In this document: positions 24,588 through 39,728 of the stretch, one piece after another
How positions within the stretch are numbered: the first letter of the stretch is position 1
Layout of the letters: each line of letters begins with the position of its first letter
Virus record (IMG/VR): IMGVR_UViG_3300045988_105168
Coordinates: 1-64,000 of that record
Length of the DNA: 64,000 bases
DNA from: a virus
Direction: 5' to 3' (one strand)
The notes under the pieces: generated by a model
What the model saw: only the letters and a program-made list of their open reading frames with translations
Told to the model about the DNA's origin: nothing
Database searches by the model: none
Made by a program: the position numbers and the translations under genes

Positions 24588-25242
24588 ATTTAGCACCTCC
24601 ATTAAACATATTAGTAATTAAGTTTTTTAACGACCTAATTACCCCCCCCCAATTCTTACGTCGATATACTTTTATCCAAGAACCATTTCCTATATAATCG
24701 CTATCTGTACATACAATTCTAATCGACATTACATTTGATTGATTTTGATTAACCAAATACGTATTACAATGTACATCAACGTAATTTCCGCCAGTAGTTG
24801 TAGTTCCTCCTTGACTATCAAAATACAACCAATCTTGATTAAAATATACTAAAGTACCGATTGTATAAAATAATGGCGTTCCCATACTCCATCCGTTCGT
24901 AAACGCCAAACAAGCAGAGTGTGTAGTAAGAACCCAAGAAGATGGAGATGATGACCATACATATCTATGACGCCCAGAATATCCAGAGCCTTTATCATTA
25001 AGTTGTAGATAATGTCCTCTGGATGTACCAGCCGTGCTATATTCTGCCACTACAATATCATACACATAACCATCTCTTTTTATATCGAGACCACTTACTT
25101 TTAATTCTTTTACATTACCATTTGCAACAGCCTCTCCTACCAATTCGCCAGTACTAAGAATATTGCTTAGTTGTTTCCTGTTATGTGAGATAGAAGAGCT
25201 ATCCCAAAATTTACTATCATTTAATTTTAAACTATTTGCCAT
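24571..25242 (-). CDS. receptor-binding/fibre-tip-like paralog B3 (poly-G at the 3' end)
   Basis: MANSLKLNDSKFWDSS N-terminus. The reading frame after ...RRKNWGG depends on the G9 tract. Confidence 0.5.
   Translation of the reverse strand: MANSLKLNDSKFWDSSSISHNRKQLSNILSTGELVGEAVANGNVKELKVSGLDIKRDGYVYDIVVAEYSTAGTSRGHYLQLNDKGSGYSGRHRYVWSSSPSSWVLTTHSACLAFTNGWSMGTPLFYTIGTLVYFNQDWLYFDSQGGTTTTGGNYVDVHCNTYLVNQNQSNVMSIRIVCTDSDYIGNGSWIKVYRRKNWGGVIRSLKNLITNMFNGGAKYGYIY
24642..24650 (-). repeat. homopolymer tract G9 (C9 on the plus strand)
   Basis: Counted directly: ACCCCCCCCCA. Confidence 0.9.
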
Positions 25243-25254
25243 AATATTTATGAG

Positions 25255-25719
25255 CTACTTTATTCTTATTGCTTGAATATGAGATTTTACACTAACAGTT
25301 TTATTTCTAGGCCATAAATTTAGATATACTCTAGTAGAACTATTTGAACTTTGTATACCGATAACCGTAGTATTTACCCAACCTTGGTCGTCATATCTAC
25401 TATCGGCTAACGATATTGTTATATTCTCTAATGCGGTATAAGAACTTAGATTTTGGTCTTCATAACGCCAATGTCCAATTACTAGCCATACACCAGCTGG
25501 TATTATTATCGAACAAATATCGTTACTTTGACTTTGTTTGGCGGTATTTGTAACTTCAGCACCGCTCGATATAACAGTTCCTATAGCGGCCACTGTATTG
25601 TTAACTGTTGTCACAGTATTTTTCATTGTATTTAAATAATTTGATAACAACTCTCTGTTATGTGTAATACCTTGTGTATCAATAAAAATATTATTTAATA
25701 GTTTTACACTTTTACTCAT
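25255..25719 (-). CDS. receptor-binding/fibre-tip-like paralog B2
   Basis: MSKSVKLLNNIFIDTQGITHNRELLS N-terminus; no SD. Confidence 0.5.
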   Translation of the reverse strand: MSKSVKLLNNIFIDTQGITHNRELLSNYLNTMKNTVTTVNNTVAAIGTVISSGAEVTNTAKQSQSNDICSIIIPAGVWLVIGHWRYEDQNLSSYTALENITISLADSRYDDQGWVNTTVIGIQSSNSSTRVYLNLWPRNKTVSVKSHIQAIRIK

Positions 25720-25736
25720 TTTGTTTCTATGCTAGA

Positions 25737-26306
25737 TTAAATTGTTTCTGTGTCTATAGATATAATATTCAACATCGTTCTACCACCTCTAAACATATAT
25801 GTTCGAGCTACACTAGCGCCAACTCTTAAATAAACATATTGCCCAGCGGCCAAATACACATTAATTGCAGGTATAACAGTAGAAACCATCCCTGATTGTG
25901 CACCAGAGTCTATTATAAATAGTACGGCACCATCACTTCTCATTACGTGAATTTGAAAATTTTCACCAGCCATATCGGAGTTGATAGCTCCAGATACAAT
26001 ATAATGGCCACTTTTAGATACTGCTATACCTCCGCCAGCACCATAAAAATTTGCAGTTGTTCTTCTATCCAATATTAAATTTAAAGTTGGATAATGTGTA
26101 TATGCACCATTTATAGCTACATTAGTATCAGCATAGAAACAAGCCAAACCAACGCCTTTATTAGCTAAAAATGTGTTTTGTTTATTTATACAATCAGATA
26201 ATGATGTGCTCTGATTGTTTAAAAAAGTAGACAATAATGTTCTATTATATGTAATCCCAGATGCATCCCAATAATTATTATTGGTTAGTTTAAGCGATTT
26301 AGACAA
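25737..26306 (-). CDS. receptor-binding/fibre-tip-like paralog B1 (TTG start)
   Basis: MSKSLKLTNNNYWDASGITYNRTLLS. The TTG start directly abuts the stop of a 5-codon SD-driven mini-ORF. Confidence 0.5.
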   Translation of the reverse strand: MSKSLKLTNNNYWDASGITYNRTLLSTFLNNQSTSLSDCINKQNTFLANKGVGLACFYADTNVAINGAYTHYPTLNLILDRRTTANFYGAGGGIAVSKSGHYIVSGAINSDMAGENFQIHVMRSDGAVLFIIDSGAQSGMVSTVIPAINVYLAAGQYVYLRVGASVARTYMFRGGRTMLNIISIDTETI

Positions 26307-26382
26307 CTAAACCACCCCTAGCATTTAACCTCCTTTGCAGAAGGTTTTGTTGAGTAAGAGTAGCAACTATATTGTGTAGCTG

Positions 26383-26391
26383 CCCCCCCCC
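26383..26391 (-). repeat. homopolymer tract G9
   Basis: Counted directly; minus-strand context GTTGAGGGGGGGGGCAGC. Confidence 0.9.
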
Positions 26392-26427
26392 TCAACTTGA
26401 TTTTTTATAGGAGATTGGACACTAAAC

Positions 26428-26472
26428 TTAAAGCCTAGATGCCCCCCCCCCTAACGAACATTTTTTAAACAT
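26428..26472 (-). promoter_or_regulatory. SD-driven leader mini-ORF containing poly-G (MFKKCSLGGGASRL)
   Basis: AGGAGG-8 nt-ATG. The tract lies inside the mini-ORF and the stop position changes with tract length. Confidence 0.4.
26442..26451 (-). repeat. homopolymer tract G10
   Basis: Counted directly; minus-strand context TTAGGGGGGGGGGCAT. Confidence 0.9.
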
Positions 26473-26485
26473 AATAATTTCCTCC

Positions 26486-26836
26486 TTACCAAGTATCAAC
26501 AACCGTATAATTAAGTTGTGATACATTACCTAAGTTTAAGTCGCTAATTTTCTTATCGACATTGAAGTTGGTACCGTGTTTAACTGATACCCAAGCATTA
26601 CTTGTTTTTCCGTTCTTGGTGCATAACTCAACAGAGTCTCCAACTGAAAGTTGTTCACCAGTTTTATTTAAGACACCAGAAACGATTTTTTCTGTATCGG
26701 GTGGTAAATAAACATCTACGCTCCCATTACTATTTACTGTTTTTACAACAGCAGACACGAACTTCGTAATTCCTTTTTTACTCATTCTTACATCTACGAT
26801 GTCTTCAATGACACCTTTAAATTCTTTAGTGTCCAT
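26486..26836 (-). CDS. small conserved fibre-cluster protein (paralog of 39372..39728)
   Basis: Shares VIEDIVD...LSVGDSVELCTKNG...SNAWVSVKHG with the 118-aa protein. Confidence 0.5.
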   Translation of the reverse strand: MDTKEFKGVIEDIVDVRMSKKGITKFVSAVVKTVNSNGSVDVYLPPDTEKIVSGVLNKTGEQLSVGDSVELCTKNGKTSNAWVSVKHGTNFNVDKKISDLNLGNVSQLNYTVVDTW

Positions 26837-26850
26837 ATTATCTCTCCTAA

Positions 26851-27078
26851 TTAATCTTCAAACTTAACTGTGTTTTCTTGGAATTTTCTAAGCATTGCTT
26901 CAAAATCGTTTCCTGGAGCACCTGCTTCCATATTTAAATTACGAGCCTTCTTTGCATCTCTACATTCTTTACAACGAATAGGTTGAGCAAATCCTTTTTC
27001 CTCGTAAAATCTTTGTTCTCCAACAGTAAAGTCAAACTCTTTACCACAGTCTTTACATACTAATTTAATATTTTCCAT
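26851..27078 (-). CDS. zinc-ribbon protein
   Basis: CKDCGKEFDFTVGEQRFYEEKGF..PIRCKECR. Confidence 0.5.
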   Translation of the reverse strand: MENIKLVCKDCGKEFDFTVGEQRFYEEKGFAQPIRCKECRDAKKARNLNMEAGAPGNDFEAMLRKFQENTVKFED

Positions 27079-27303
27079 TTACTTATTTTTCCTTCCTTTT
27101 TTCTTAGTACCTTGATTTTGTTCTATTTCTAAACGTTCTCTTTCAGCACGTTCTTGTTGCGCCTGTTGTACTTGTGCCAGCGCTTCTTGATACAAACCTT
27201 CTCTTAATGCATTTACATTTAATGCTTTTTCTTCTAAAGCATTTAATATAACGTCCATATCATCAGAACTAACTGCTAATGTAATCATAATTTTGTTACC
27301 CAT
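27079..27303 (-). CDS. hypothetical protein (74 aa)
   Basis: ORF track. Confidence 0.5.
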   Translation of the reverse strand: MGNKIMITLAVSSDDMDVILNALEEKALNVNALREGLYQEALAQVQQAQQERAERERLEIEQNQGTKKKGRKNK

Positions 27304-27311
27304 AATTACAC

Positions 27312-27848
27312 CTACTTAATAGATATACTTTTGTTTTCTACGATTTGAGCACCAGGGATTACTTCTGTTGCAAGAACGTCTTTTAACCCTTTTTTAACCA
27401 AAGACACTTTTGTTTCAACTTTCTTACAAGTTTCGTTATATTCTGGATGTGCCTCTAAGAATTTAAGAACGGCCTCTTCATTAGTAATATCAACAGAAGA
27501 CGACTTTCTAGTTCCTAAACGATAATCTTTTAATTCTTTTTTATCAATATTATTAGCCAACATTAACGCTTTTAAGAATTCATTTAGTCTTTCAACTCTA
27601 TTCTCATAATATTTGATATTGTCTTCAATTTCTTTTTTACGAGCTTTTAACGCATCGGCTTGTGCTTCAGTCTTCTTTATATATCCACAAATACCATTTA
27701 GTTTATCATCAAATTTTTCTTCTAATGCATCTAAATCATCACTTGTAAAGAATACCTCTCCTGTTTCTTCATCGGCATAAAAACCGTTTTCAATAACATT
27801 AAAAATCGCCTCAGTTAAACCCCAAGAAGTTAAATCTTTTATATCCAT
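27312..27848 (-). CDS. Gp157-like coiled-coil protein (recombination/replication module)
   Basis: Size, coiled-coil character and position upstream of the nuclease/ATPase genes. Weak family recognition only. Confidence 0.35.
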   Translation of the reverse strand: MDIKDLTSWGLTEAIFNVIENGFYADEETGEVFFTSDDLDALEEKFDDKLNGICGYIKKTEAQADALKARKKEIEDNIKYYENRVERLNEFLKALMLANNIDKKELKDYRLGTRKSSSVDITNEEAVLKFLEAHPEYNETCKKVETKVSLVKKGLKDVLATEVIPGAQIVENKSISIK

Positions 27849-27849
27849 A

Positions 27850-28077
27850 TTAAGCCTCCCTTGTTTTCAATATATACTTTTTAAATGATGTCTTCTCTCC
27901 ATATCGGTTCGTACGAGTTTGCCATTCTTCTTCAAATTCGTAGCCATCGATATGTTTTAAATTATATATAATAGCACTAAGTCTAGTGATACCATACTCT
28001 ACAAAACTCTCCCAAGATGTAATATGTCCGTAATCAACAAGATGTCGCAATATTCTTTCTTTTTGAGTCATCTTCAT
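27850..28077 (-). CDS. winged-helix DNA-binding protein
   Basis: ILRHLVDYGHITSWESFVEYGITRLSAIIYNLK HTH-like pattern. Confidence 0.4.
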   Translation of the reverse strand: MKMTQKERILRHLVDYGHITSWESFVEYGITRLSAIIYNLKHIDGYEFEEEWQTRTNRYGEKTSFKKYILKTREA

Positions 28078-28079
28078 AA

Positions 28080-28280
28080 TTACGCCTCCTTAGGTTTACG
28101 ATAAGTTCCTTTAGAGCTATCCCATAAAACATTAGGATAATATTTTCTATCGAAGCAAGCAATTTTACCTTCTAATTGTCTTATCTTCCATTCATTATTC
28201 TCTTCCTTTGCTTTCTCTAAAGCATCCATAAGAGCTTTCTTTTTCATTACGCGTCTATACGCAACAGTATTTTCAAACAT
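28080..28280 (-). CDS. hypothetical protein (66 aa)
   Basis: ORF track; AAGGAGA SD. Confidence 0.5.
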   Translation of the reverse strand: MFENTVAYRRVMKKKALMDALEKAKEENNEWKIRQLEGKIACFDRKYYPNVLWDSSKGTYRKPKEA

Positions 28281-28308
28281 AATTTATTTTCTCCTTTTTT
28301 ACCATTTC

Positions 28309-28337
28309 TTGACAAATTTGCAAAAAAGTTGTATAAT
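28309..28337 (+). promoter_or_regulatory. perfect consensus promoter TTGACA-17-TATAAT, antisense to the gene block
   Basis: TTGACA 28309-28314, a 17-nt spacer, TATAAT 28332-28337. It points into the 3' end of the minus-strand nuclease gene. Confidence 0.45.
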
Positions 28338-28351
28338 CTTAAACCGACCCA

Positions 28352-29173
28352 TTAAAATGGGCATTCGTCTAAAGATTGCGCCCTTTTGTGCTCAAAGAGC
28401 ATCTCTTTTGCCTCTTTGTATAAATCTTTAGTCTTATAAATCTCATAAGTAGAATTGTTCTCATTTATCCATATAATGAAGTGCTCGTTGCTTAGCTTTA
28501 AGCCAGTCTTCTTTTCAAAGATATACTGGTAACCATTAAGTTGCAAACTATAATGAATATAATTACAATCGTCCAAATGTGATAAGCAACCCGTCATTTT
28601 CTGTCCTTTATATGGTTTAAACTTAATCTCTTTATTTGATTTATAATCTACGATAATTAGAGATTGTAATTTTATGGAATAACATAAAAAATCAATACTT
28701 CCACAAATCTCTAAATCTTCGTCGCCGACAACAAGTTCCAAACCAATAGGTATTAATCTGTCTTTATACTTATTATAGAACTCTGTCGATATTTTGGTGA
28801 GCTGAGGCCATAATGGTTCTAGCACATCAGTACCAAATTGCTCTATTATTTTATCTTTAGGGTATTCATACTTCTCGCCTTTCCACATATATTCGTTAAA
28901 GGCGTGTATATGCGTCCCTTTTACCTTTGATAATTCATTAGTAAAAGCCCACATATCGAGTACCTCCTGTACTGGAATACCCATTTTACGCGCTGTAAAT
29001 GGAGCAATTTTTTCTGCATCAAATGGTTGAGCGTGAGAATGAATAAGCGCAGTCATCGATGTTTTCGCTTGTTTGCGTTCTCCATTTTCATCCAACCACC
29101 AATATATATGAGGTTCTTCCTCAAAATGAAACATATCAAATACTTTTAAACGCGACTTAATATCTTCTATCAT
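28352..29173 (-). CDS. PD-(D/E)XK (RecB/Cas4-like) nuclease
   Basis: GSIDFLCY...IIVDYKSNK D...(D/E)xK arrangement; C-terminal tail LDECPF. Confidence 0.6.
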   Translation of the reverse strand: MIEDIKSRLKVFDMFHFEEEPHIYWWLDENGERKQAKTSMTALIHSHAQPFDAEKIAPFTARKMGIPVQEVLDMWAFTNELSKVKGTHIHAFNEYMWKGEKYEYPKDKIIEQFGTDVLEPLWPQLTKISTEFYNKYKDRLIPIGLELVVGDEDLEICGSIDFLCYSIKLQSLIIVDYKSNKEIKFKPYKGQKMTGCLSHLDDCNYIHYSLQLNGYQYIFEKKTGLKLSNEHFIIWINENNSTYEIYKTKDLYKEAKEMLFEHKRAQSLDECPF

Positions 29174-31104
29174 AATGGACTTACCTCCTTCGACACTACG
29201 TTATGATTGTTAGGGTCGTAAGTTGGTATTGGGTATTGAGATAAATCTCTTTTGTCCCATCCATATCTAAACCAAACTTCCTCAGGTTTTTGATAAAATC
29301 TATAAGAAGGATAATCGAAATATAGATTAACTAAAGGTAATACACCAGTAATACGATTTTTTAACACTTCTACACAAGAGTCGTATTCTACAGGTTCTTT
29401 TCCTTTAATAAAATCTCCTCGTTGATTTGTTTCACCCTCTTTTTCACGGTCGGTATATCTATGTACACTAAACACCATATGTGCTAGGTTAACAATATTA
29501 CCACTACCTGCAATGTCTTCTTTAGTAACTCTTATTTCTCCTGTTTTACGAGGATGAGCTACTAAAAACACCAAGACATTGTATTTTTTTGCAAAGAATA
29601 TAAGTTTATTTACAAATTCTTTTTCTGCTTGTAAACGACCCTCTTCGCTACATTCTAGGTCAACCATCATTAAATTATCTATTAGGAATACTTTTGTTCC
29701 ACATTTACGAGCAAGTTCTTCCATCTTGTTTAATAATGCTGACGCCGTAGTGTTATAATCATCATCATACACTAATACTTTCCCACTGTACCAATTTTGC
29801 ATAATCTTACGTTGTTCTGAGTCAAACACACGAACGTGCCCATCTCTCATTGTTATATGGTCTCTACCAATCATATTAGTTTCAACCCAATTTCTTAGAA
29901 TAGGAGCGGGTAATTCGCCACTAAATACAAATACTTCATAGCCTTGTTGTAATGCTTGACATATAGCAACTTGATTTACGAATACAGATTTACCTTCACC
30001 ACTTTTACCTGTAATAATATTAAGCGTTCCAAAAGTTAGTTTATATATTTTGTCATCAAGTTCTTTAATACCTGTATACAGTCCTTCTGTATGCTCAATA
30101 TCAAAATCTTCAGCAGACGATAAATCTAATACTTTTTCAACTGGTACTTCTAAAGGTTTATTTATATATTCTAAAACTCTGTCTTTACCTATAAAGAATA
30201 AAACCTCATTAATATCTTTTACTTGCACACCATTAGGCGTTACATCTGTTGGTTGTGTTTCTACATAATAAGTTCTCCAAGTCCCTAAACGATAAATAAT
30301 ATCATTACGAGCTTTTACTCCAGGTTCGTCAGCATCAAACCATAAAATAATTTTATGAAATTGTTCTAACCAATCCCAATTATATTGAACCCATTGTGCA
30401 TTACTACAACCATTTGGTATAGAGACAACATTTGTATATCCCGCCTCAATAACTGATAAACAATCAATTTCTCCCTCAGTAATAACTAAAGGTTTTGTTG
30501 GGTCTACTCTATTCATATTAAATAGTAGTGGCGAAAAATCTGCCTCTAATTGAGACCAACATTTTGATTTGTCTACACCCTTTTGATATTTCTTTCCTAA
30601 ACGATATTTTACAGTCATTAATACATCGTTACTATCATAATAATGAAAAGCAACGTTCCCATATTTATCACTTTGTATATCGGCATAATCCATAGTTTTT
30701 ATGCTAATACCTCTGACTTGTAAATATTGTTCTACATTTGTTCTATCAGAATGTTCTCTACGTGGATATTTATAAGAGGAGGCAGTTTGCACTCCCCTTT
30801 GACTAAAATTGTAATCCATATCCACTTGTTTAAATAGTTTTTCTACAGCCTCTAAATAAGTAAGCCCTTGCTCTAAGTATAAGTCGATAATACCAAAGTT
30901 TCGACCACAACTAAAGCAATGAAAACAATTTGTTTTATCATTCCAAATGAACGACGGCGTTTTATCTCTATGCCAAGGACAAGAGCAACTTTTGTCTTTT
31001 TCATTATAAGAACCTTCTAAACCGAAGTGTCTAACTATCTCGTCGATAGCCTGACCATCATATTTGGCTTTCGCCGCATCAATCTTCTCGACTGGAATTA
31101 ACAT
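29170..31104 (-). CDS. bifunctional primase-helicase
   Basis: CHC2 zinc finger CPWHRDKTPSF...CFHCFSCG, TOPRIM ITEGEIDC/FDADEPG, Walker A GKSGEGKS, Walker B FLIDNLMM. Confidence 0.85.
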   Translation of the reverse strand: MLIPVEKIDAAKAKYDGQAIDEIVRHFGLEGSYNEKDKSCSCPWHRDKTPSFIWNDKTNCFHCFSCGRNFGIIDLYLEQGLTYLEAVEKLFKQVDMDYNFSQRGVQTASSYKYPRREHSDRTNVEQYLQVRGISIKTMDYADIQSDKYGNVAFHYYDSNDVLMTVKYRLGKKYQKGVDKSKCWSQLEADFSPLLFNMNRVDPTKPLVITEGEIDCLSVIEAGYTNVVSIPNGCSNAQWVQYNWDWLEQFHKIILWFDADEPGVKARNDIIYRLGTWRTYYVETQPTDVTPNGVQVKDINEVLFFIGKDRVLEYINKPLEVPVEKVLDLSSAEDFDIEHTEGLYTGIKELDDKIYKLTFGTLNIITGKSGEGKSVFVNQVAICQALQQGYEVFVFSGELPAPILRNWVETNMIGRDHITMRDGHVRVFDSEQRKIMQNWYSGKVLVYDDDYNTTASALLNKMEELARKCGTKVFLIDNLMMVDLECSEEGRLQAEKEFVNKLIFFAKKYNVLVFLVAHPRKTGEIRVTKEDIAGSGNIVNLAHMVFSVHRYTDREKEGETNQRGDFIKGKEPVEYDSCVEVLKNRITGVLPLVNLYFDYPSYRFYQKPEEVWFRYGWDKRDLSQYPIPTYDPNNHNVVSKEVSPL

Positions 31105-31147
31105 ACTCTTGCCACCTTTCTAAAATTATTTATTTGTTATATTAATC

Positions 31148-31693
31148 TTAGAATGGGCATTCATCTGCCGCCGTAGGTGCTGCTACTGGAGCTGCTTCTA
31201 CAACTGGTGTTACAGGTTGAACTGGAGTAACTGGCGCTACTGGAGCTGCTTGAGCAACTGGTGTAGCAGGAGCAACTTTTGGTTCTTCTGCAACTTGAGG
31301 AGCCTTATCTAAGTTTCTAGTAGGATTAGTTTCTGTTTGTGCATTTGGGTCATATAACTCAAATTCAAAAACTGTAATCTTTTCATTCTTTGGATAAGCA
31401 ATACAACCATTGTTAGTGTCCCAATATGGTTCAGTACTCATATCGGCAACTACATTAGTGATTGTGTCCCCTGGCTTAATATTTTTTAATTGGTGATAAG
31501 CGTGACCAATAAATCTAACAAATGAACGATAGTCTGCAATATAACCATTTTTAGCAACACCGTTGTTTACTTGTACTTGGTCATAAGAACTATCTTCTTT
31601 TACTTTACGGCTTGTAGAGAATTTTACTTCTGCTACGCCATCTTTATCATTGATTTCCCAAACTTTTACTCTGTCTGTAATTGTTACTCTCAT
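31148..31693 (-). CDS. ssb: single-stranded DNA-binding protein
   Basis: OB-like N-terminal domain, a Pro/Ala/Val-rich linker and an acidic-aromatic tip ADECPF. Confidence 0.65.
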   Translation of the reverse strand: MRVTITDRVKVWEINDKDGVAEVKFSTSRKVKEDSSYDQVQVNNGVAKNGYIADYRSFVRFIGHAYHQLKNIKPGDTITNVVADMSTEPYWDTNNGCIAYPKNEKITVFEFELYDPNAQTETNPTRNLDKAPQVAEEPKVAPATPVAQAAPVAPVTPVQPVTPVVEAAPVAAPTAADECPF

Positions 31694-32577: not shown

Positions 32578-32649
32578 ACTTTCCCTCCTTCTGTTCTATA
32601 GAATTGGCCTCTCATCTTCTACCCTGTGCTCAATTCTAAATAAATTATA

Positions 32650-33708
32650 CTATATTTTATCATAAATGTCAATAATTTTTTTTAAAATCTTGACAAACCT
32701 TTTTATTTCGTGTAATGTATTCTGTTTACCTAAAGAAACACGTATTGTCTTCCTTGCATCTTCTTCGCTATATCCATAAGCCAATAGTATTTTAGACGGC
32801 TCATCACTTGATGCATTACACGCACTACCTGCTGATACGGCAATACCCTCTTTATCTAATATGCCAACAGCAGTTTGAGCGTCTAGCTCATTAAAAGTTA
32901 TATTCATAATGTTGTTATGATATGACATTTTTACGCCACTAAAATATAATTTAGAATAAATATAATTCATTAGTTTGCTATATTTCTCTTCTATCTCATA
33001 TCTGTTCTTATAAGCAAGTTCTAACGCTTTAGCCATTCCAACTATACCAGCAACATTTTCTGTTCCACCACGCAATTCGTGTTCTTGATGTCCATATATT
33101 AATGGTTTAAAGTTTTCTTGAAGGTCTCTACGAATAAACAATACACCTACACCTTTTGGAGCGCCAAATTTATGGCCACTAAAAGAAGCTGTCGCATACT
33201 TATATACTGGCTCATCTAAAGGTCTCATTACATAACTATCAGGGAACAAAGGTATCGCCGTTCTTTGTTCGTGTAGATTAATATATTCTTTACCAGCTGC
33301 CTGTGTTAAATCAACGTGACAACAATCAAAGCAGTCGTGATATATGTAATGTTTACCACCGACCTCACTATCAACCAATGGATAAGACATAATTTGAGCT
33401 TTACGAACATTGTTATTAGCCATTATCATTGAGTCGTGAGAGAATGGCGAACATTCACATTTAAAGTTTTTAGAAACCCACGAATTTGACTCGCTAGCAC
33501 CGCTTGTAAAGAATATTTCATCTTCGTAACACCCTAATAATTCAGCAATCTTTTCCCTCGCTTTATCAATAGCTAAACGGGCTTTTCTGCCCTCTTGATG
33601 AATACTGCTAGGATTTCCATATTCTGTCGTTAAATAAGGCATCATCGCTTTTAAAACACGCTTATCAATAGGTGTCGTAGCGGCGTTATCCAAATAAATT
33701 CTCTTCAC
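32650..33708 (-). CDS. class V aminotransferase / cysteine desulfurase (NifS/IscS-like)
   Basis: [32 protein letters not shown] (PLP lysine), SAGSAC active-site Cys loop; GTG start. Confidence 0.8.
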
Positions 33709-33739
33709 TCTATCACCTACCTCTCTCTATGTTAATTAA

Positions 33740-33768
33740 ATACTAACATATAATAGTGACTTTGTCAA
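33740..33768 (-). promoter_or_regulatory. promoter TTGACA-17-TAGTAT for the replication operon
   Basis: Minus-strand TTGACA (33768-33763) and TAGTAT (33745-33740), immediately after the lysis-module terminator. Confidence 0.5.
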
Positions 33769-33773
33769 GATAG

Positions 33774-33803
33774 AAAAAAATGGGCTACATCGCTGTAGCC
33801 CAT
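33774..33803 (-). terminator. intrinsic terminator ending the late (structural/lysis) operon
   Basis: Minus strand ATGGGCTACA-GCGA-TGTAGCCCAT followed by T7. Confidence 0.75.
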
Positions 33804-33809
33804 TATTCA

Positions 33810-34895
33810 TTATCTGATTGTTAAAACTTGTCCTGGTTTAATTAAATTAGGGTTATTACCAATTACAAATTTATTCTTAGCATATAATTCTTGCCAAGAC
33901 ATACCATATTTAGCAGCAATTCCTGATAAAGTATCACCAGATTTTACTGTATATGTAACTGTTTCTCCTGCTAATCTAATAGAGCTTTCATTCATCCATC
34001 CTAAATCACCAGTTGTGTTATAAGGATGAGGTGCACCAGCTGCATATCTTGTAATATAAGTAGTTTTATTACTTACATTTCCAGATGCATTGGCAGCAGT
34101 TGAACTCTTATATAATGCTCCATTAATAATAACCTTTGTTCCAATAGCAAATTTTTGAGTTGGTGTTGGTTTTGGTTCTTCATATTTAGTGATAGAAGCT
34201 TCGTCCATCCAACCTAAATCTCCAGTAGTATTATATGGATGTGCAGCCCCAGATACCTTACGAGTAATGTTTGTAATCTTGTTACTTACACTACCTGCTG
34301 GAGATGATGCATTTGAGCTCTTATATAAAGCTCCGTTAATTACAACTTTATCTCCAATATTAAATTTACCACTTGGACTTGGTGTTGGCGCTGGAGTTGG
34401 TTCATCAGGTACTGCTGGATTATAAATAAATCCTCTAAATGTGTATCCTGAACCTAATCCCCATCTTCCATTAGAATTATATCTGTGAGAGTTCCAGAAA
34501 GCACTTCCACCATATCCAGACTCAGAAGTGTATACGTGGTTGTTATCATATACTGCTTCAACAACAGCTACGTGTCCAGCACCATCGTTACCGCTTAATG
34601 TAGCACCTTTTTGCCAACACATAATAGCTCCAACTTTAGGTGTTTGACCAATTTTTAAACCAGCCTCTTTTGCTCTTTCAATAAAGTTTTCAGCGTTACA
34701 GCATAAAGTTTTATACTTCATAGACCCAATTATTTCATTAAATCTACCACAAGCATATCCTACACAGTTTGCTAGAACATTACATCCTGGGTCAGTTGGA
34801 TTACCATTGATACACCAAGAATATCCGCCATTATTGCCATTGTTATAAAACTTATTACCAGCACTAGGTTTACTTGTTCTCATTGTGAAAGCCAT
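33810..34895 (-). CDS. endolysin: CHAP-like amidase/peptidase, two SH3b-like repeats, LysM
   Basis: CVGYACGRF...GHVAVVE. Two repeats KF.IG.KV.INGALYKSS...HPYNTTGDLGWM. C-terminal [17 protein letters not shown]...PGQVLTI. ATG 34895 sits behind GGAGG. Confidence 0.8.
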   Translation of the reverse strand: MAFTMRTSKPSAGNKFYNNGNNGGYSWCINGNPTDPGCNVLANCVGYACGRFNEIIGSMKYKTLCCNAENFIERAKEAGLKIGQTPKVGAIMCWQKGATLSGNDGAGHVAVVEAVYDNNHVYTSESGYGGSAFWNSHRYNSNGRWGLGSGYTFRGFIYNPAVPDEPTPAPTPSPSGKFNIGDKVVINGALYKSSNASSPAGSVSNKITNITRKVSGAAHPYNTTGDLGWMDEASITKYEEPKPTPTQKFAIGTKVIINGALYKSSTAANASGNVSNKTTYITRYAAGAPHPYNTTGDLGWMNESSIRLAGETVTYTVKSGDTLSGIAAKYGMSWQELYAKNKFVIGNNPNLIKPGQVLTIR

Positions 34896-34896
34896 A

Positions 34897-35040
34897 TTAT
34901 TCAACCTCCTCTACGTTTTCAATTATTGTGTCTTCTGTACAAAGTACATCAAACCCATCCTCGTTGAAAGTTGTTTGGATTTCTAAATCCTCAGGCATTT
35001 CAACTACTTCTTCAATAATTTCTTCTTTTTTCTTTGCCAT
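34897..35040 (-). CDS. small acidic protein (47 aa, below the track cutoff)
   Basis: AGGAGGAATGAAAA SD region plus ATG. MAKKKEEIIEEVVEMPEDLEIQ... Confidence 0.35.
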   Translation of the reverse strand: MAKKKEEIIEEVVEMPEDLEIQTTFNEDGFDVLCTEDTIIENVEEVE

Positions 35041-35053
35041 TTTTCATTCCTCC

Positions 35054-35398
35054 TTATTTTTCATTATTTGAGTTTACAGGTACATTTACCGTTAATAAGT
35101 CTTTAATCTTCATTAAGACTTTACCTGCATAAACTAAGTTCGCAGCTTTAATTAATAATGTTGCTCCTGTTAATGTAGTAACCATTTCACCATTAATTTC
35201 AGCCACTTCCATTGGGTAAATATAAGTTGACGCAAAAGCTAAAGCTAACCCAATTAAAAAGAAGGCAGCTTTGCTAATGCCTCCAACTAATTTTTCTTTG
35301 TTGTATTCTTGTTTAAAATCGGCTAACTTTTTACCCATAATAATGTTAGCCACCATTAAACATATTAAAGATAATACAACTGCAATATACTCTGGCAT
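35054..35398 (-). CDS. holin
   Basis: 114 aa with about 3 hydrophobic helices, directly upstream of the endolysin. Confidence 0.65.
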   Translation of the reverse strand: MPEYIAVVLSLICLMVANIIMGKKLADFKQEYNKEKLVGGISKAAFFLIGLALAFASTYIYPMEVAEINGEMVTTLTGATLLIKAANLVYAGKVLMKIKDLLTVNVPVNSNNEK

Positions 35399-35410
35399 TT
35401 AAATTCCTCC

Positions 35411-36490
35411 TTAAATAACCTTAAATTTTTCCTTTTTTACTTCTACGAACGAACCACCATTTTGGCTTGTGTACATTTTGTATCTAGTAAATCCACCACC
35501 ATTTTGAGATACGTAGATATATTTGTCAGATACAACCGTAACTGAATTGCTTCCATTTACCGCAGTTGTTCCACTACCGCTCCAATGTTTATTACCAGCC
35601 CAATCATAACAATATGCAAATATACTTGTCGTAGCAACATCCCCAGGTACAAAACCTAAAGCTTCAAATGTTCCAAAGGTATAGGTAACCGCTGTACTAT
35701 CGGTGTCTATACATTGTATTTCAGTACCATTTTTATACAAACGAATTCTATATCCGCCTATTGCTGTAGAGCCAGCTGATGCCGCCGTCCAAGTTGCTTT
35801 AATATTTGCCTTTGGTATTGGTTCACTTTGGTCATAGGTTAATACTGGTGCACCTGGGTTACCTGGAGCGTAGAAGGCCGTCGTAAAACTTGTAACGGCT
35901 GTATACGCCCTACCAGCACTATTAGCCGCGTTTCCTCGTAAATAATATGTTCTATTCGGTGTTAACCCAGTAATAGTACCTGCTTTACTACTAATACCCG
36001 CTACTACAGTACCAAAGTTTGTTAATGATGCATCGATATAACCATCGGATGGAGCTTCACCATTATTGTTAGACACACTAAACGAAGCGTAAACCGACGT
36101 ATCTTTAACACTACTATAACTAATTGCACTCAGTGTTGGTTTAAAAATATACGCAGACATTGTAAAATTACCACCGTGGTTATCTGTACGATTATAAAAT
36201 ACATATCCTGTAAAATATACAGTTATGGTTTTTGAACTTGCTCCGTTACCTATCCATACACTACCACTTGTACTACCAACTTTTGCTGGGAATGCATAAG
36301 TATTCCAAGCAACCGTACCTGGATTGTATACTGTCGTACCGTTAATCTTAACATTTACATTATAAATAGTATAGTAATTGCTACTACTATTACCAGTAGA
36401 ATATAATGCCCATTTCGCATACCCACCATCTTGCCAAACATCTAGTTGTAAATATCTCCCATCATAAGTATTACTATAAAAAGTAGCCAT
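35411..36490 (-). CDS. tail fibre / FN3-like repeat protein
   Basis: Ser/Thr/Gly/Asn-rich beta-type sequence with FN3-like GLTPNRTYYLRG; lies in the fibre cluster. Confidence 0.45.
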   Translation of the reverse strand: MATFYSNTYDGRYLQLDVWQDGGYAKWALYSTGNSSSNYYTIYNVNVKINGTTVYNPGTVAWNTYAFPAKVGSTSGSVWIGNGASSKTITVYFTGYVFYNRTDNHGGNFTMSAYIFKPTLSAISYSSVKDTSVYASFSVSNNNGEAPSDGYIDASLTNFGTVVAGISSKAGTITGLTPNRTYYLRGNAANSAGRAYTAVTSFTTAFYAPGNPGAPVLTYDQSEPIPKANIKATWTAASAGSTAIGGYRIRLYKNGTEIQCIDTDSTAVTYTFGTFEALGFVPGDVATTSIFAYCYDWAGNKHWSGSGTTAVNGSNSVTVVSDKYIYVSQNGGGFTRYKMYTSQNGGSFVEVKKEKFKVI

Positions 36491-36501
36491 CTACTCACCT
36501 C

Positions 36502-36900
36502 CTAACTTGCAGTATTTATCCATATAATTGTCTTTCCGCTTTGTGCTGATGGTTGTGTTGAACTAACTTTGATAATTGTATTCCCATCGCTCATTACACC
36601 ATAAGCATTTACGGCTTCTTTTACTCTTGCTGGCGTCATTACTTTATTTGTGATTGCACCAGCAGTTGCTTCGGCAGTTGTTGCAGCTGCTAATGATAAT
36701 GTTCCATCACTAAGATTTAAACCGTTACCAGTAGTAACTTTGATATGACCAAAAGCCGATGTTGTTGCTACACCAAAATCAGTTGTTGTTGACGCGTGAT
36801 TTTTTGTAGCCTTATTTGTATAAAGGTCTGTGAAATTTTCATTTAAAATATTTCTAAACACAGCACCTGATATACCATTATTTAAGGTTTGTTGTGCCAT
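36502..36900 (-). CDS. tail fibre protein (N-terminal adaptor-like)
   Basis: MAQQTLNNGISGAVFRNILNENFTDLY is a typical fibre N-terminus. Confidence 0.45.
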   Translation of the reverse strand: MAQQTLNNGISGAVFRNILNENFTDLYTNKATKNHASTTTDFGVATTSAFGHIKVTTGNGLNLSDGTLSLAAATTAEATAGAITNKVMTPARVKEAVNAYGVMSDGNTIIKVSSTQPSAQSGKTIIWINTAS

Positions 36901-36926
36901 ATAATCTCCTCCTTTTTAATTTAACT

Positions 36927-37445
36927 TTATGCGGTTCTTTTCCAAACAAATACATCAACTGTTGCTATATTATGCGAATGTGCGCCTCCGCCACCCGTAT
37001 TTTGATTGGTGGCTGTAGCCGCTCTTGTAGATACGTTATCATAAGGCGCACCAGTACTTGACCTTGACCAACCTAATTCAATACATCCAGTACTCCCATA
37101 AGTGGTTGAAACAACTATTGTATCCCCTGAACTACCGCTGTCATTATGCCTTAAACCGTGATGCTTGTGTGAATTTTGGGTATGGGTATGACTTGGCATT
37201 TGAGATACTGTTAATGTGTGTCCTTGAGTTCCCCATCCAACATAGTCTGTTTTACCAATACTAGATTGAGCCGCATATAAATATCCACCATATAATTGCT
37301 CCCAAGTACCACCAAAGTAGGTTGATGGATTTGTTTTATTAATTGACAAATAAATTGAACCAACTGGATATAAATCTTTTATATCAAGTGGTGTTATTGA
37401 TACATTTTTATTATTGTTATATATTCTTCCATATGGTTTTGCCAT
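36927..37445 (-). CDS. phage tail-collar-domain fibre protein A4
   Basis: GSIYLS...YFGGTW, QMPSHTH, GGGGAHSHN...VFVWKRTA. Confidence 0.65.
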   Translation of the reverse strand: MAKPYGRIYNNNKNVSITPLDIKDLYPVGSIYLSINKTNPSTYFGGTWEQLYGGYLYAAQSSIGKTDYVGWGTQGHTLTVSQMPSHTHTQNSHKHHGLRHNDSGSSGDTIVVSTTYGSTGCIELGWSRSSTGAPYDNVSTRAATATNQNTGGGGAHSHNIATVDVFVWKRTA

Positions 37446-37466
37446 AAATTTCGGTTTATCGTGATA

Positions 37467-38016
37467 TTAAGCCGTACGTCTCCATACATAATTACTTGTG
37501 TTATAGACATCTATTTTAAAAGCCTTTAAACCAATACTATCTAATGTTCGCCCTGTTGCACTCCAAGATTGTAAATACACTGTAACTGGAGTAGATGTTA
37601 CAATTACATCAACGACCTGTCCACTATATTTGTTACCATCACTACAATGAACTGATTGTCTAGTATAAGCACCTCGTGAAGAAAGTTGTAATGTAAAACC
37701 TGTGCCACTACCATAACCAGAAGCAGAACCAATAAGTAACCATCTACCTTGTGGTAATGTAATAGACGCATTACTTATCCAAGTCGCTCTTGCTTCATCA
37801 GTTAACACCAACCCATTTACTTCCAATGTCTCATCTATTTGAGACCATTCTCCTCCAAATAAAGTTCTAGGGTTGACATTATTAGTACTGATATATATAG
37901 AGCCTGTAGGCTGTATACTATCACTTAATAACCTGCCCCCCCCCCTCACAATAGATACTCTTGTCAGAGATTAGGACAGGCAAATCTTTTACTTTTACTT
38001 TTCCATAATTCGCCAT
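37467..38016 (-). CDS. collar-related fibre paralog A3, interrupted by a frameshift at poly-G (in-frame at G9)
   Basis: A 31-codon N-terminal ORF (ATG 38016, MANYGKVKVKDLPVLISDKSIYCEGGG...) and the body ORF 37467..37949 are 1 nt out of frame across the G10 tract. Confidence 0.6.
37936..37945 (-). repeat. homopolymer tract G10
   Basis: Counted directly; minus-strand context TGTGAGGGGGGGGGGCAGG. Confidence 0.9.
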
Positions 38017-38046
38017 AAAAATTTTATAGTTAATTAATCTTTACTT

Positions 38047-38625
38047 TTAAGCTGTACGTTTCCAAATGTAAACTACTAAGTACGGCATTAAATTGTTATG
38101 ATTACCACCACCACCAGTACTATTTGTAGTTCCATCGTGTTGGTGGGCTGATTTATTATTACCCGCATATGTCAACCACTCATTTAATCTATAATTTGTA
38201 GACCACCCCATACCACTATTGCCTATGAAGTCATTATTACTAGCGGCGCCTGCGCCAGCAGAATAATAAGCTATTTCGTGTCTGTGATGGCCACCAACAT
38301 TTGTAAGAAAATAATGTGTATGACTGGGCATTTCTGAAGTTGTTATTTTATGTGTAACCTCACCACCCATATTACCAGCATAAGCTACAAAGCTCCCTGC
38401 GTTAACAGTACCACACCAGTTGTCATTATTTGCCACAATAGTTCCTTCACCAACCAAAGTACGACCCTGAGCTATTTTTATCCAAGTACCACCAAAGTAA
38501 GTTGATGGATTTGTAGAATTAACACTAATATATACAGACCCGATAGGCCATACATCATAAGTATCAATCCCCATTATAGAAACGTTCTTTCCTTTTTGAT
38601 AAAGTCGACCATAAGGTTTTGCCAT
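38047..38625 (-). CDS. phage tail-collar-domain fibre protein A2
   Basis: GSVYIS...YFGGTW, EMPSHTH, GGGGNHNNLMPYLVVYIWKRTA. Confidence 0.65.
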   Translation of the reverse strand: MAKPYGRLYQKGKNVSIMGIDTYDVWPIGSVYISVNSTNPSTYFGGTWIKIAQGRTLVGEGTIVANNDNWCGTVNAGSFVAYAGNMGGEVTHKITTSEMPSHTHYFLTNVGGHHRHEIAYYSAGAGAASNNDFIGNSGMGWSTNYRLNEWLTYAGNNKSAHQHDGTTNSTGGGGNHNNLMPYLVVYIWKRTA

Positions 38626-38654
38626 AATACTCGACGCTTCGGTTTATTATTTAT

Positions 38655-39217
38655 TTAAGCTGTTCTTTGCCATATATAAACCGCCATATAAGGCATTACG
38701 TTATTATGCCATCCTCCGCCACCTGTGTTTTGCATTGCAATACTGTTACTCCATCCTTTTGTATCCATACTGTAAAGGTAATCCCAGTTATTATAGCTTA
38801 ATGTAGCTAACGCATCTGAATTGTTGTTATAAGGATTATAACCATTACTATTCTTATTTAATGCTGTAACTTTATGGCAATGAGCTGGCATCTCACTTGT
38901 TGTTAGGTAATGATTATATTGGCCGCCCATTTCACCAGCCCAGAAACTATAATTATTATTATTAAGTGTTCCACACCAATTAGTGTTATTATCTGAAGGG
39001 TCTCCAACACCAACTAAGCATCTACCTTGACAAATCTGTGTCCAAGTGCCCCCAAATAAATCTTTAGGGTTTGTGGCGCTCATTGTTAAATAAATACTAC
39101 CGACAGGATAAACTAAATCAAACAGTTTATCGAGCGTCTTGCCCCCCCCTCATACAGTATTGAACTTGCATTTATAAGGACGGGACTATTTTTTACATAT
39201 GTTTTTCCTTTATTCAT
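38655..39217 (-). CDS. tail-collar-domain fibre protein A1, interrupted by a frameshift at poly-G (in-frame at G9)
   Basis: The N-terminal ORF from ATG 39217 (MNKGKTYVKNSPVLINASSILYEGG...) and the body frame (KTLDKLFDLVYPVGSIYLTMSATNP..., EMPAHCH, GGGGWHNNVMPYMAVYIWQRTA) differ by 1 nt across the G8 tract. Confidence 0.6.
39142..39149 (-). repeat. homopolymer tract G8
   Basis: Counted directly; minus-strand context TATGAGGGGGGGGCAAG. Confidence 0.9.
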
Positions 39218-39244
39218 AAGTTAAATCGTAAAGATTGTCATACC

Positions 39245-39276
39245 AAAAAGAGGTATACTAACTATAATATACCTCC
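39245..39276 (-). terminator. intrinsic terminator between the poly-G leader and fibre cassette A1
   Basis: Minus strand GAGGTATA-TTATAGTTAG-TATACCTC followed by TTTTT. The 5' arm overlaps an AGGAGG. Confidence 0.55.
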
Positions 39277-39307
39277 TTTCTCTCGAAAGTTAGAAGGCAC
39301 GACAATC

Positions 39308-39349
39308 TTAGCGATGTGTCGCCCCCCCCCTAATCATATAATTTCTCAT
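39308..39349 (-). promoter_or_regulatory. SD-driven leader mini-ORF containing poly-G (MRNYMIRGGATHR)
   Basis: AAAGGAG-9 nt-ATG with a G9 tract inside. At G8 or G10 the frame reads on into the terminator hairpin. Confidence 0.4.
39322..39330 (-). repeat. homopolymer tract G9
   Basis: Counted directly; minus-strand context ATTAGGGGGGGGGCGAC. Confidence 0.9.
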
Positions 39350-39371
39350 TAAAAATCACTCCTTTTATTCA

Positions 39372-39728
39372 TTAATATTCACCTGTTTTAACGAAGATTA
39401 GAGCGTTATCTTCTAAATACTTTACACGGTCTGCGATTGAGGTTCCTTTACCGTGTTTTAATGCAACCCAAGAATTTGATAAACGTCCATTTTTAGTACA
39501 TAATTCTACTGAGTCACCAACTGACAAACTTTCAGTACTTTTATTTAAGACATTATTTACTCTTCTTGCATTATCGGGTGGAATTGTAACGTTAACTGTA
39601 CCATCAGAATTAATCTGTGTTACAACCGCTGCAACAAAGGAAGTTATACCATAACTCGCTAAACGAGCATCTACAATGTCCTCAATTACTTTTTTAAATT
39701 CCTCTAATTGTCTTGCATCAAAATTCAC
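39372..39728 (-). CDS. small conserved fibre-cluster protein (paralog of 26486..26836)
   Basis: VIEDIVDARL...LSVGDSVELCTKNGRLSNSWVALKHG; GTG start. Confidence 0.5.
   Translation of the reverse strand: MNFDARQLEEFKKVIEDIVDARLASYGITSFVAAVVTQINSDGTVNVTIPPDNARRVNNVLNKSTESLSVGDSVELCTKNGRLSNSWVALKHGKGTSIADRVKYLEDNALIFVKTGEY

Follow-up and report, generated by a model that had tools for sequence, protein, structure and literature searches.

Length-variable poly-G tracts as probable contingency loci for receptor-binding modules in a human-gut phage lineage

Phase variation through simple sequence repeats (SSRs) is well described in bacteria, including the poly-G tracts of C. jejuni, pilC and opa of Neisseria, and lic of H. 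influenzae (PMC8437040, PMC6625227). Among phages, the closest described system is that of the Campylobacter Fletchervirus group, in which hypermutable poly-G tracts occur in receptor-binding protein (RBP) genes (Sorensen et al., 2021, Cell Rep 35:109214, as cited in PMC12633550 and PMC12823448). Contingency loci have also been recognized in coliphages T2/T4 and others (Gomez, Barrick & Waters, 2025, bioRxiv, PMC12633550). Those loci are mostly short SSRs (6 bp or more) that occur in all gene classes and are reported to be under-represented in tail fibers, and the same work refers to earlier poly-G sightings in BPP-1 and PB1-like phages (PMC12633550). In the current study, we characterized six poly-G tracts in the two fiber gene clusters of a phage represented by IMG/VR record IMGVR_UViG_3300045988_105168. 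The stretch analyzed, positions 1 to 64,000 of the record and hereafter the window, is part of an uncultured human-gut phage genome of ~115 kb. Taking all observations together, we consider it highly probable that the tracts are contingency loci that switch receptor-binding modules on and off.

The arrangement resembles that of Fletchervirus in having poly-G runs of 7-11 nt inside phage receptor-binding genes, with several tracts per genome, and in length variation that shifts the reading frame and would give a phenotypically mixed population, known here from sequence alone. Unlike in Fletchervirus, the tracts occur in arrays of small interchangeable receptor-binding domain (RBD) cassettes behind a split-off anchor gene, and half of them lie in leader upstream open reading frames (uORFs) or at a C-terminus. 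With bacterial contingency loci the system shares a homopolymer in 5′ coding sequence, a three-phase ON/OFF logic, many independent loci and a lower stability of longer tracts; it differs from them in being virus-borne, in being associated with a phage DnaE-type polymerase and in affecting receptor-binding modules of the virion rather than cell-surface structures. As in T2/T4, slippage-prone repeats are found in phage genes, where they would allow reversible frameshifts and bet-hedging. In contrast to the T2/T4 loci, the runs here are long (8-10 G, and as many as 12 G in relatives), lie in a genome poor in G and are restricted to receptor-binding clusters. Within the literature that could be searched here, we did not find the gut-phage setting, the split anchor with its cassette array, the number of independent switches or the leader-ORF design, and neither phase-variable translational coupling nor such a multi-switch array has been described there for any phage.

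The six tracts are listed below; the genes and leader ORFs in which they lie are described later.

39322-39330, minus strand: poly-G tract of 9 G, in the cluster-2 leader mini-ORF
39142-39149, minus strand: poly-G tract of 8 G, at about codons 24-26 of cassette gene C2p1
37936-37945, minus strand: poly-G tract of 10 G, at about codons 25-27 of cassette gene C2p3
26442-26451, minus strand: poly-G tract of 10 G, the first tract of the cluster-1 leader uORF
26383-26391, minus strand: poly-G tract of 9 G, the second tract of the cluster-1 leader uORF
24642-24650, minus strand: poly-G tract of 9 G, at the C-terminus of cassette gene C1p3

All six coordinates and lengths exactly reproduce those of a preliminary description of the window, which had also noted that the surrounding DNA is AT-rich and holds no comparable tract elsewhere, that all six tracts fall in the two fiber clusters, and that most share a local context. 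Each of these statements was borne out. The GC content of the window is 33.1%, and the only G/C runs of at least 6 nt window-wide are these six, all poly-C on the plus strand; since the minus strand carries all local genes, they are poly-G on the sense strand. A contig identical to the window (L077; relatives are designated here by L numbers) extends ~8 kb beyond the window start, and no G/C run of at least 6 nt was found in that extension. Run lengths are discontinuous, with C runs of up to 5 nt (n = 4), none of 6-7 nt and six of 8-10 nt. For runs of at least 8 nt, between 0.10 (independent bases) and 0.15 (first-order Markov) would be expected in the window, as opposed to the six seen, and the probability that all six would lie in the two clusters, which make up 8.9% of the window, is ~5e-7. 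A context of T(T/G)A-Gn-C is common to five of the tracts, the exception being 24642 (ATT-G9-TAA). The window has many A and T runs, some as long as 9 nt. Glycine is encoded by GGG less often than by any other codon (8.6% of Gly codons). The surveyed minus-strand ORFs contain eight further GGG or GGGG peptide motifs, among them the conserved GGGG close to the C-terminal end of these cassette proteins, and all eight use a mixture of GGT, GGA and GGC. The rarity of GGG and the mixed codons at other Gly3/Gly4 motifs indicate that the homopolymers are a maintained nucleotide feature and not a by-product of glycine coding. Of the six tracts placed in the fiber clusters by the preliminary description, only three are inside cassette ORFs (two N-terminal, one C-terminal). 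The other three are in leader ORFs of 13-57 codons, each led by a Shine-Dalgarno (SD) sequence, that sit between the anchor gene and the first cassette.

Tract length was compared among close relatives, obtained by exact-protein look-ups as contigs from independent human gut metagenomes, several of them from the Fiji cohort PRJNA217052. Eight of nine contigs had no mismatch to the window over 7.1-12.6 kb; three of these (L042, L043, and L047) were identical throughout, and the other five differed solely by tract indels. At tract 37936, 8 G were found in L040, 9 G in L041, L044, and L045, and 10 G in L042, L043, and the window, and a 182-aa gene is called at C2p3 in the three 9-G contigs. Tract 26383 has 8 G in L048, again with no mismatches, vs. 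9 G in the window. Contig L046 (99.1% identical) has 8, 10, and 8 G at 26442, 26383, and 24642, respectively, where the window has 10, 9, and 9. Slippage is known to rise with homopolymer length, and the observation that the most polymorphic tract among identical contigs is the longest (10 G) fits this dependence.

Similar results were obtained with two IMG/VR genomes of a sister lineage. Their sequences, compared as L002 with L003 and L024 with L026, share 99.9% identity over ~42 kb, with ~17 substitutions; all six indels between these genomes fall at poly-G tracts, and a seventh tract carries a G-to-C change. No indel was seen outside poly-G tracts in the pairwise comparisons (L002/L003, L024/L026, and the window contigs). 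Most orthologous tracts have two or three length alleles: 8-10 G at orthologs of 26442, and, for leader tract 39322, 8 or 9 G in the lineages that share 96-98% identity with the window and 7, 8, or 9 G in L002-type lineages. Tract 39142 has 9 G in L079-L085, which belong to the 96-98%-identical lineages, and in its L002 ortholog. The preliminary description had interpreted the tracts as a switching system, and this comparison across related genomes, which it had suggested as a check, favors that interpretation.

To follow the consequences for the encoded proteins, the products of alternative phases were written out and looked up by exact sequence among ~15 billion proteins. The exact 187-aa C2p1, 182-aa C2p3, 200-aa C1p3 and 57-aa cluster-1 leader products were all present in public assemblies. 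The 187-aa and 182-aa ON products are not encoded by the window itself, and OFF forms were found alongside them in public assemblies. For C2p1, the exact 187-aa product was on 2 public contigs, 187-aa variants on 5 plus 2 more, and a truncated call of 142 aa on at least 33. C2p3 was represented by forms of 182 aa (at least 11 contigs), 160 aa (14) and 113/114 aa (22), and C1p3 by forms of 223 aa (~44), 200 aa (~18) and 201-202 aa (~8); the exact 57-aa leader product was on 2. The tracts are real and hypervariable, and their length is the main, often the sole, difference between near-identical genomes. It determines the reading frame of intact RBD genes, and every phase is represented among natural sequences. 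These runs are long enough to slip (~7-8 nt or more), lie in coding or leader regions, are polymorphic in length and switch the frame, as do SSR contingency loci. Slippage is the presumed cause of the variation, and the changes are presumably reversible. At the level of genotype, the interpretation as switches is supported.

In further lineages, recovered from metagenomes and metagenome-assembled genome (MAG) bins, as many as seven tracts occur in cluster 2 and as many as three in cluster 1, always as poly-G on the coding strand and never as poly-C. Pooled across lineages, 14 of 40 tract-led cassettes are in frame, a proportion that would be expected if phases drifted freely. Relatives in which tracts are missing or interrupted do exist, a situation that the preliminary description had counted against switching, but these have a fused or single-cassette fiber, which fits the switch model. 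In L049 (L049:7340-8110), a change of ATG to ATA has destroyed the first cassette, and an A interrupts the leader tract, which reads G5AG3; in the single remaining cassette, which is in frame, the tract has been cut to G6 by flanking G-to-A changes. To judge from these changes, L049 looks like a "locked" version of the switch.

The genes of the two clusters, each of which opens with a stand-alone anchor gene followed by four small cassette genes, are as follows.

39372-39728, minus strand: A118, stand-alone fiber-anchor protein of cluster 2, with GTG start, strong SD and 24-aa stub
38655-39217, minus strand: C2p1, Gp10_C cassette with 22-aa leader MNKGKTYVKNSPVLINASSILY-E-GGG, OFF in the window, no SD
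38047-38625, minus strand: C2p2, tract-less Gp10_C cassette with MAKPYGRLY... leader, no SD
37467-38016, minus strand: C2p3, Gp10_C cassette with 23-aa leader MANYGKVKVKDLPVLISDKSIYC-E-GGG, OFF in the window, no SD
36927-37445, minus strand: C2p4, tract-less Gp10_C cassette with MAKPYGRIY... leader, no SD
26486-26836, minus strand: A116, stand-alone fiber-anchor protein of cluster 1, paralog of A118
25737-26306, minus strand: C1p1, first cluster-1 cassette, TTG start, with leader MSKSLKLTNNNYWD...
25255-25719, minus strand: C1p2, tract-less cluster-1 cassette, no SD
24571-25242, minus strand: C1p3, cluster-1 cassette, 223 aa in the 9-G phase, no SD
23970-24587, minus strand: C1p4, last cluster-1 cassette, ATG 24587, with MATSIKLNSP... 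leader and its own SD, GGAGGT

Cluster 2 (36927-39728) immediately follows the tail module. All four of its cassettes exceed the curated Pfam cut-off of 27 bits for Gp10_C (PF21939), with scores of 90.7 (C2p1), 85.5 (C2p2), 53.5 (C2p4) and 29.2 (C2p3) and E-values between 2e-6 and 2e-25 (2e-25 for C2p1, 8e-24 for C2p2, and 6.5e-14 for C2p4). C2p1 also matches the C-terminal domain of T4 gp10 (2fkk, E = 5e-5). With 31-37% identity, the cassettes also resemble proteins that carry the annotation "antireceptor" or tail-collar fiber in phages of Lactobacillus delbrueckii, Streptococcus, Lactococcus and Vibrio. On this sequence evidence, the C2p1 and C2p3 tracts lie in predicted receptor-binding protein genes of the Gp10_C/tail-collar type. 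Tracts 39142 and 37936 encode a Gly-Gly-Gly linker that joins the leader to the Gp10_C domain. Nine G's restore the frame, giving 187 aa for C2p1 and 182 aa for C2p3, and the other phases stop 3-9 codons past the tract. Both genes are out of frame in the window (8 G and 10 G, respectively), with open frames of 124-162 codons and Gp10_C matches retained.

When lineages are compared (38655-39217 vs. L002:11784-12296), near-identity extends over the leader, the tract and the first ~45 nt of the RBD. In this same comparison the 22-aa leader is identical while the RBD behind it is only 29-35% identical, and the sequences indicate that the leader module is conserved and that the cassette bodies following it are exchanged. 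The ratio of nonsynonymous to synonymous substitution rates (dN/dS) between the window and L002 cassettes was uninformative, as synonymous sites are saturated at 29-35% RBD identity. A role for the tract as the recombination boundary itself was ruled out by the conserved sequence, which runs ~45 nt past it. We also rejected switching by an invertase or shufflon, since there are no crossover-type repeats or significant inverted repeats bracketing the cassettes and all cassettes are on one strand, and a deletion-fusion model, since a stop codon lies between the anchor and the leader ORF and crossover-type repeats are lacking.

Cluster 1 (23970-26836) is located between replication genes and DnaE. 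Its four cassettes form an unannotated family with the common N-terminus M-x-x-S-x-K-L...W/I-D-S-S-G-I-x-H-N, for which Pfam and PHROGs searches returned nothing. For C1p3, whose homologs end at the position of the tract, only six homologs were found, and a comparison with PDB sequences gave only noise. With 8 G or 10 G, C1p3 would be 200 or 202 aa, both of native length; with 9 G it gains a non-conserved 23-aa tail that is read across the SD and ATG (24587) of C1p4. An AlphaFold model of C1p3 was poor, with a predicted local distance difference test (pLDDT) score of 53, and Foldseek retrieved only generic jelly-roll or lectin-like beta-sandwiches at template modeling (TM) scores of ~0.3; neither the model nor these matches were used as evidence.

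The anchors A116 and A118 (116-118 aa) are 50% identical to each other. The clusters had been called paralogous, and this applies to the anchor genes but not to the cassettes, which belong to different families (Gp10_C vs. unannotated). The first ~95 anchor residues are conserved in 11 lineages and in all related phages recovered. The anchor of the window lineage stops after a stub of 24-29 aa, with four separate small genes behind it, whereas in tract-less relatives (L005, L007, L010, L011, L015, L018, L022, and L036) the anchor domain is the N-terminus of one long ORF, fused to a Gp10_C domain or a long fiber as the distal part. The C-terminal ~70-100 residues of these long fibers are shared. 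Because the ~95-aa domain is fused to a distal domain in these relatives, we interpret it as the fiber anchor. L024 has, as a free cassette with a cluster-1-type N-terminal leader, the C-terminal domain that is joined to the anchor in L036, and for this reason the cluster-1 genes are read as distal fiber domains. The anchor had no tblastn match among phage records and no match in Pfam or PHROGs, and its profile gave only noise against PDB sequences.

Another feature of both clusters is a leader ORF with its own poly-G tract or tracts and a predicted RNA structure, as listed below.

39258-39349, minus strand: cluster-2 leader mini-ORF, with strong SD and ATG at 39349, followed by six codons and then the tract
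39225-39315, minus strand: cluster-2 leader RNA structure, a helix of 39296-39315 with 39225-39244 and a hairpin at ~39245-39284
26299-26472, minus strand: cluster-1 leader uORF, with strong SD and ATG at 26472 and two poly-G tracts in series
26296-26346, minus strand: two hairpins at the junction of the uORF and C1p1 (-15.4 kcal/mol, z = -2.7)

Strong SDs precede almost all genes in the window (median duplex energy, -9.9 kcal/mol), and the leader ORFs are no exception (-9.0 kcal/mol in cluster 2 and -11.1 kcal/mol in cluster 1). Six cassette genes (C2p1-4, C1p2, and C1p3) have no SD and start 19-28 nt past the preceding stop. Should their translation rely on re-initiation, a poly-G cassette in the OFF state would exert a polar effect on the tract-less cassette that follows. 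Scans for consensus promoters showed no enrichment.

In cluster 1, only one of nine phase combinations, 9 G plus 10 G, gives the 57-aa uORF product; the window, with 10 G and 9 G, encodes 14 aa. The TAA of the 57-aa uORF (26299-26301) overlaps the TTG start of C1p1 (26304-26306). Of the two hairpins at this junction, the upstream one (26327-26346) has an 8-bp stem and a GCAA loop and sequesters a GGAGG, and the second (26296-26313) has a 7-bp stem and presents the UUG start codon in its loop. The stop/start overlap recurs in L024, L052, L063, and L068. Relatives also have two further uORFs of unrelated sequence before later cassettes, each with one poly-G tract; their junctions show the same two-hairpin layout with different stem sequences, and again one phase only gives a stop that overlaps the next start. 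These leaders combine their own ribosome-binding site, a stop overlapping the downstream start and an initiation region within predicted structure, and the recurrence of the overlap together with the hairpins is a classical signature of translational coupling. For the tracts of these uORFs, we rate the chances as even that they gate cassette translation indirectly.

The cluster-2 mini-ORF starts 20 nt past the A118 stop and is conserved in 10 lineages. Its product has 13 aa at 9 G (as in the window), 28 aa at 8 or 11 G, and 29-30 aa at 7 or 10 G, and these phases end at the foot of a long-range helix, in a hairpin loop and just past the loop, respectively. The helix brackets an invariant 15-bp GGAGG hairpin and a U-run, and it ends 7 nt upstream of the SD-less C2p1 ATG. 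It consists of 14 pairs, 97.9% paired in the 10 lineages, with compensatory changes at 4 pairs, and none of 500 shuffles was as good. Fold z-scores of the leader structure were -4.4 and -5.5, and the helix also appeared as an inverted repeat in a repeat scan; the terminator scan missed the hairpin owing to its loop-size rule. Some role in coupling or attenuation is likely for this leader.

Start-site hairpins that couple genes are known from RNA phage MS2, and leader ORFs that act by attenuation from ermC. As in those cases, a start codon and a GGAGG are buried in predicted hairpins here, and the stop of an upstream ORF overlaps a downstream start. Unlike in MS2 and ermC, the arrival of the leader ribosome would be set by one or more hypermutable DNA tracts and not by a physiological signal.

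Putting these elements together, we propose that G's are gained or lost at the six contingency loci by slipped-strand mispairing during phage DNA replication, so that the phage population would be mixed in which receptor-binding modules can be made. The cassette proteins, by their 22-40-aa N-terminal leaders, presumably dock onto the anchor stub of A118 or A116, as the architecture suggests, and the set of in-frame cassettes would determine which receptor-binding heads a particle carries. In one type of switch, found in cluster 2, the tract lies in the Gly linker at about codon 25, and one length in three would give the full protein. In another, the leader tract or tracts would decide where the leader ribosome stops: in cluster 1, one phase combination would carry it through the two hairpins to the C1p1 start, and in cluster 2 the phases would stop it before or inside the helix and hairpin that end 7 nt before the C2p1 start. 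A further type, at the C-terminus of C1p3, would alternate between the native length and an added 23-aa tail. We infer that tract switching may in this way change host range. More tentatively, and at slightly less than an even chance, the system might amount to a stochastic combinatorial display, in which a constant anchor accepts up to ~10 cassettes, each independently gated by poly-G either directly or via uORFs, with two tracts in series forming an AND gate.

Other phages reach a similar end by different means. The G segment of Mu and the C segment of P1 are inverted by Gin and Cin, respectively, and BPP-1 diversifies Mtd through a diversity-generating retroelement. In each case, as proposed here, one genome gives rise to particles with different receptor-binding ends, and in Mu and P1 a constant N-terminal fiber part is joined to alternative C-terminal parts by recombination. 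In contrast to Mu and P1, the present system would use homopolymer frameshifts, its constant and variable parts are separate polypeptides and it has no invertase sites. As for BPP-1-type retroelements, neither a reverse transcriptase nor a template repeat was seen. RBPs docked on an adaptor are known from TP901-1 and Tuc2009 (BppU-BppL) and from the branched tailspikes of CBA120, G7C and K1-5. There, too, modular RBPs attach non-covalently to a baseplate anchor via N-terminal segments, a docking that we infer for the cassettes. Those phages express all of their RBPs constitutively, whereas the individual RBPs here are proposed to be stochastically gated.

Several observations weigh against the contingency-locus proposal. 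All of the length variation seen is between assembly consensus sequences, and some length calls could be choices made by the assembler at a homopolymer. Tracts 39322 and 39142 are invariant in six window-identical contigs and vary only in the 96-98%-identical lineages. C2p1, C2p3 and the cluster-1 leader are all in non-productive phases in the window. The cluster-1 cassettes belong to no recognizable family, and their putative role in receptor binding is read from context. Six cassette genes lack an SD, and leader phase is uncorrelated with the ON state of C2p1, leaders of 8 G and of 9 G both being found with a 9-G C2p1. The reliance on assembled consensus sequences is also what speaks for an artefact, in which each tract has one true length and the differences are sequencing or assembly errors; homopolymers are the classic site of indel errors, and some contigs have low coverage (5.4 for L041, for example). 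Such an artefact is nonetheless extremely unlikely. Tract positions are conserved in many independent assemblies (MEGAHIT k127/k141 and SPAdes NODE contigs), some alleles differ by 2 nt (8 vs. 10 G and 7 vs. 9 G), individual alternative lengths are found repeatedly across many contigs (the 182-aa form of C2p3 on 11 and the 113-aa form on 14, for example), and no indels are found elsewhere in the ~42 kb compared between L002/L024 and L003/L026 despite common A/T runs of up to 9 nt. Errors would also leave unexplained why GGG-GGG-GGG is kept only at tract sites in a 33% GC genome. The direct observation of DNA length polymorphism, in-frame alleles included, argues against recoding, in which the DNA tract would be fixed and RNA-polymerase slippage or ribosomal frameshifting would yield the full-length proteins. 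Long homopolymers can cause transcriptional slippage, as is established for A/T runs, and the tracts do lie in coding sequence with short alternative frames that end nearby. Recoding predicts one conserved out-of-frame length, however, and three phases were found at roughly random frequencies (14/40 in frame), with no slippery heptamer or downstream pseudoknot noted; we regard it as very improbable as the sole explanation, and it could act on top of DNA-level switching by making OFF states leaky.

If instead the frameshifted cassettes were dead remnants and the G-runs incidental scars of gene decay, one could account for the frameshifts in both switchable cluster-2 cassettes of the window, for the lost cassettes and start codon of L049, and for cassette genes that lack an SD. 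We give this possibility next to no credence, as the downstream frames are free of stops over 124-162 codons although the genome is AT-rich, their Pfam Gp10_C matches are retained, in-frame alleles of the same genes exist, the leader and tract are more conserved than the RBD behind them (identical 22-aa leader vs. 29-35%), and the architecture recurs with up to seven tracts in several lineages. The leader tracts 39322, 26442 and 26383 deserve separate consideration, since they could serve mainly as RNA or DNA structural elements, independent of the frame of a leader peptide. Examples would be G-runs that pair with pyrimidine stretches, a terminator/antiterminator, or boundaries for recombination during cassette exchange. 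In keeping with such a role, leader regions fold far better than shuffled sequences (z = -4.4 and -6.2) with the G-runs paired in the predicted folds, a terminator-like hairpin and U-run follow the cluster-2 mini-ORF, and conservation is higher in the leaders (87% column identity) than in coding sequence. A mainly structural function is still unlikely in view of the strong, correctly spaced SDs and conserved start codons of the mini-ORFs and of three unrelated uORFs that all end, in one phase only, on a stop overlapping the next start; moreover, a single G-run cannot form an intramolecular quadruplex.

Neither cluster had a nucleotide match among 50,697 phage records, and the nearest relatives of the tail proteins are from Thomasclavelia and Geobacillus phages (24-27% identity). 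With its long tape measure, DnaE and SD-led genes, the phage appears from its sequence to be siphovirus-like and unrelated to the Campylobacter phage lineage. This agrees with the preliminary description, which had noted an architecture different from that of Campylobacter phages, and makes the phage an analog and not a member of Fletchervirus/Eucampyvirinae. Relatives are binned with MAGs of Candidatus Coprovivens, uncultured Bacilli, Bacillota and Clostridia, and in one case with a Proteobacteria bin. The host is probably a member of Bacillota and not Campylobacter, as metagenomic binning weakly indicates.

With regard to the neighboring genes, the tail module ahead of cluster 2 includes a tape measure (44087-48904) with PhageMin_Tail and LysM domains, followed by three tail proteins. 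Two IMG/VR relatives, L001 and L004, with a tail protein 88-90% identical, lack cluster 2, and their tail protein gene is followed by a homolog of 36502-36900. Because cluster 2 is missing from these genomes, it appears to be an accessory insertion in the tail module. The two genes downstream of cluster 2 are conserved in all relatives and encode a 132-aa protein (36502-36900; MAQQTLNNG…NFTDLY…) and a 359-aa protein (35411-36490) with a faint fn3 match in relatives; they may represent a further, constitutive fiber or adhesin. The replication genes beside cluster 1 encode a primase-helicase, a protein of the PD-(D/E)XK superfamily (weak match) and Gp157. On the other side, the phage encodes a DnaE-type polymerase (20742-23894 and downstream; L046:7818-12465) with PHP, pol III alpha and HHH regions, followed downstream by a T4-type RNA ligase and then an RNase T/DnaQ-like exonuclease. 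This polymerase bears on the question of which enzyme replicates the slippery tracts, and its match is split by an insertion in the more distant relatives L028-L030. At the start of the window (64-9205) is a dense array of 16 tRNA genes and a transfer-messenger RNA (tmRNA) gene (4189-4555, tag ANNEIYLGYFI), with glycosyltransferase and radical-SAM genes interspersed.

Poly-G runs were also seen outside the fiber clusters of some relatives. An in-frame 8-G tract is present in a C5 DNA cytosine methyltransferase gene (…FAGIGAPRKALIRGGYNYE…) of L035 (L035:4721) and L025 (L025:7585), a gene that is absent from the window. This methyltransferase may be phase-variable, to judge from its sequence, which recalls the poly-G reported in the methylase gene of BPP-1. 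In distant relatives, runs of 12, 9 and 8 G lie in small ORFs (L059:169, L011:21155, and L015:20910, respectively).

Poly-G phase variation of phage RBPs has so far been experimentally established only for Campylobacter phages, and our analysis would extend it to an abundant lineage of gut phages, in which several lineages carry the system with 6 to 10 tracts per genome. A practical consequence is that such genes will be mis-annotated as pseudogenes or truncated ORFs, with public calls ranging from 113 to 187 aa for the same gene, and that strain-level comparisons of viromes will show spurious gene gain and loss. The split anchor and cassettes, together with the leader-ORF switches, suggest compact parts for engineered stochastic or tunable receptor display. 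The prediction for the biology of these phages is that one gut-phage "strain" would be a cloud of particles with different receptor specificities, which would have implications for predicting host range, for how phage and host coexist over the long term in the gut, and for phage therapy design.

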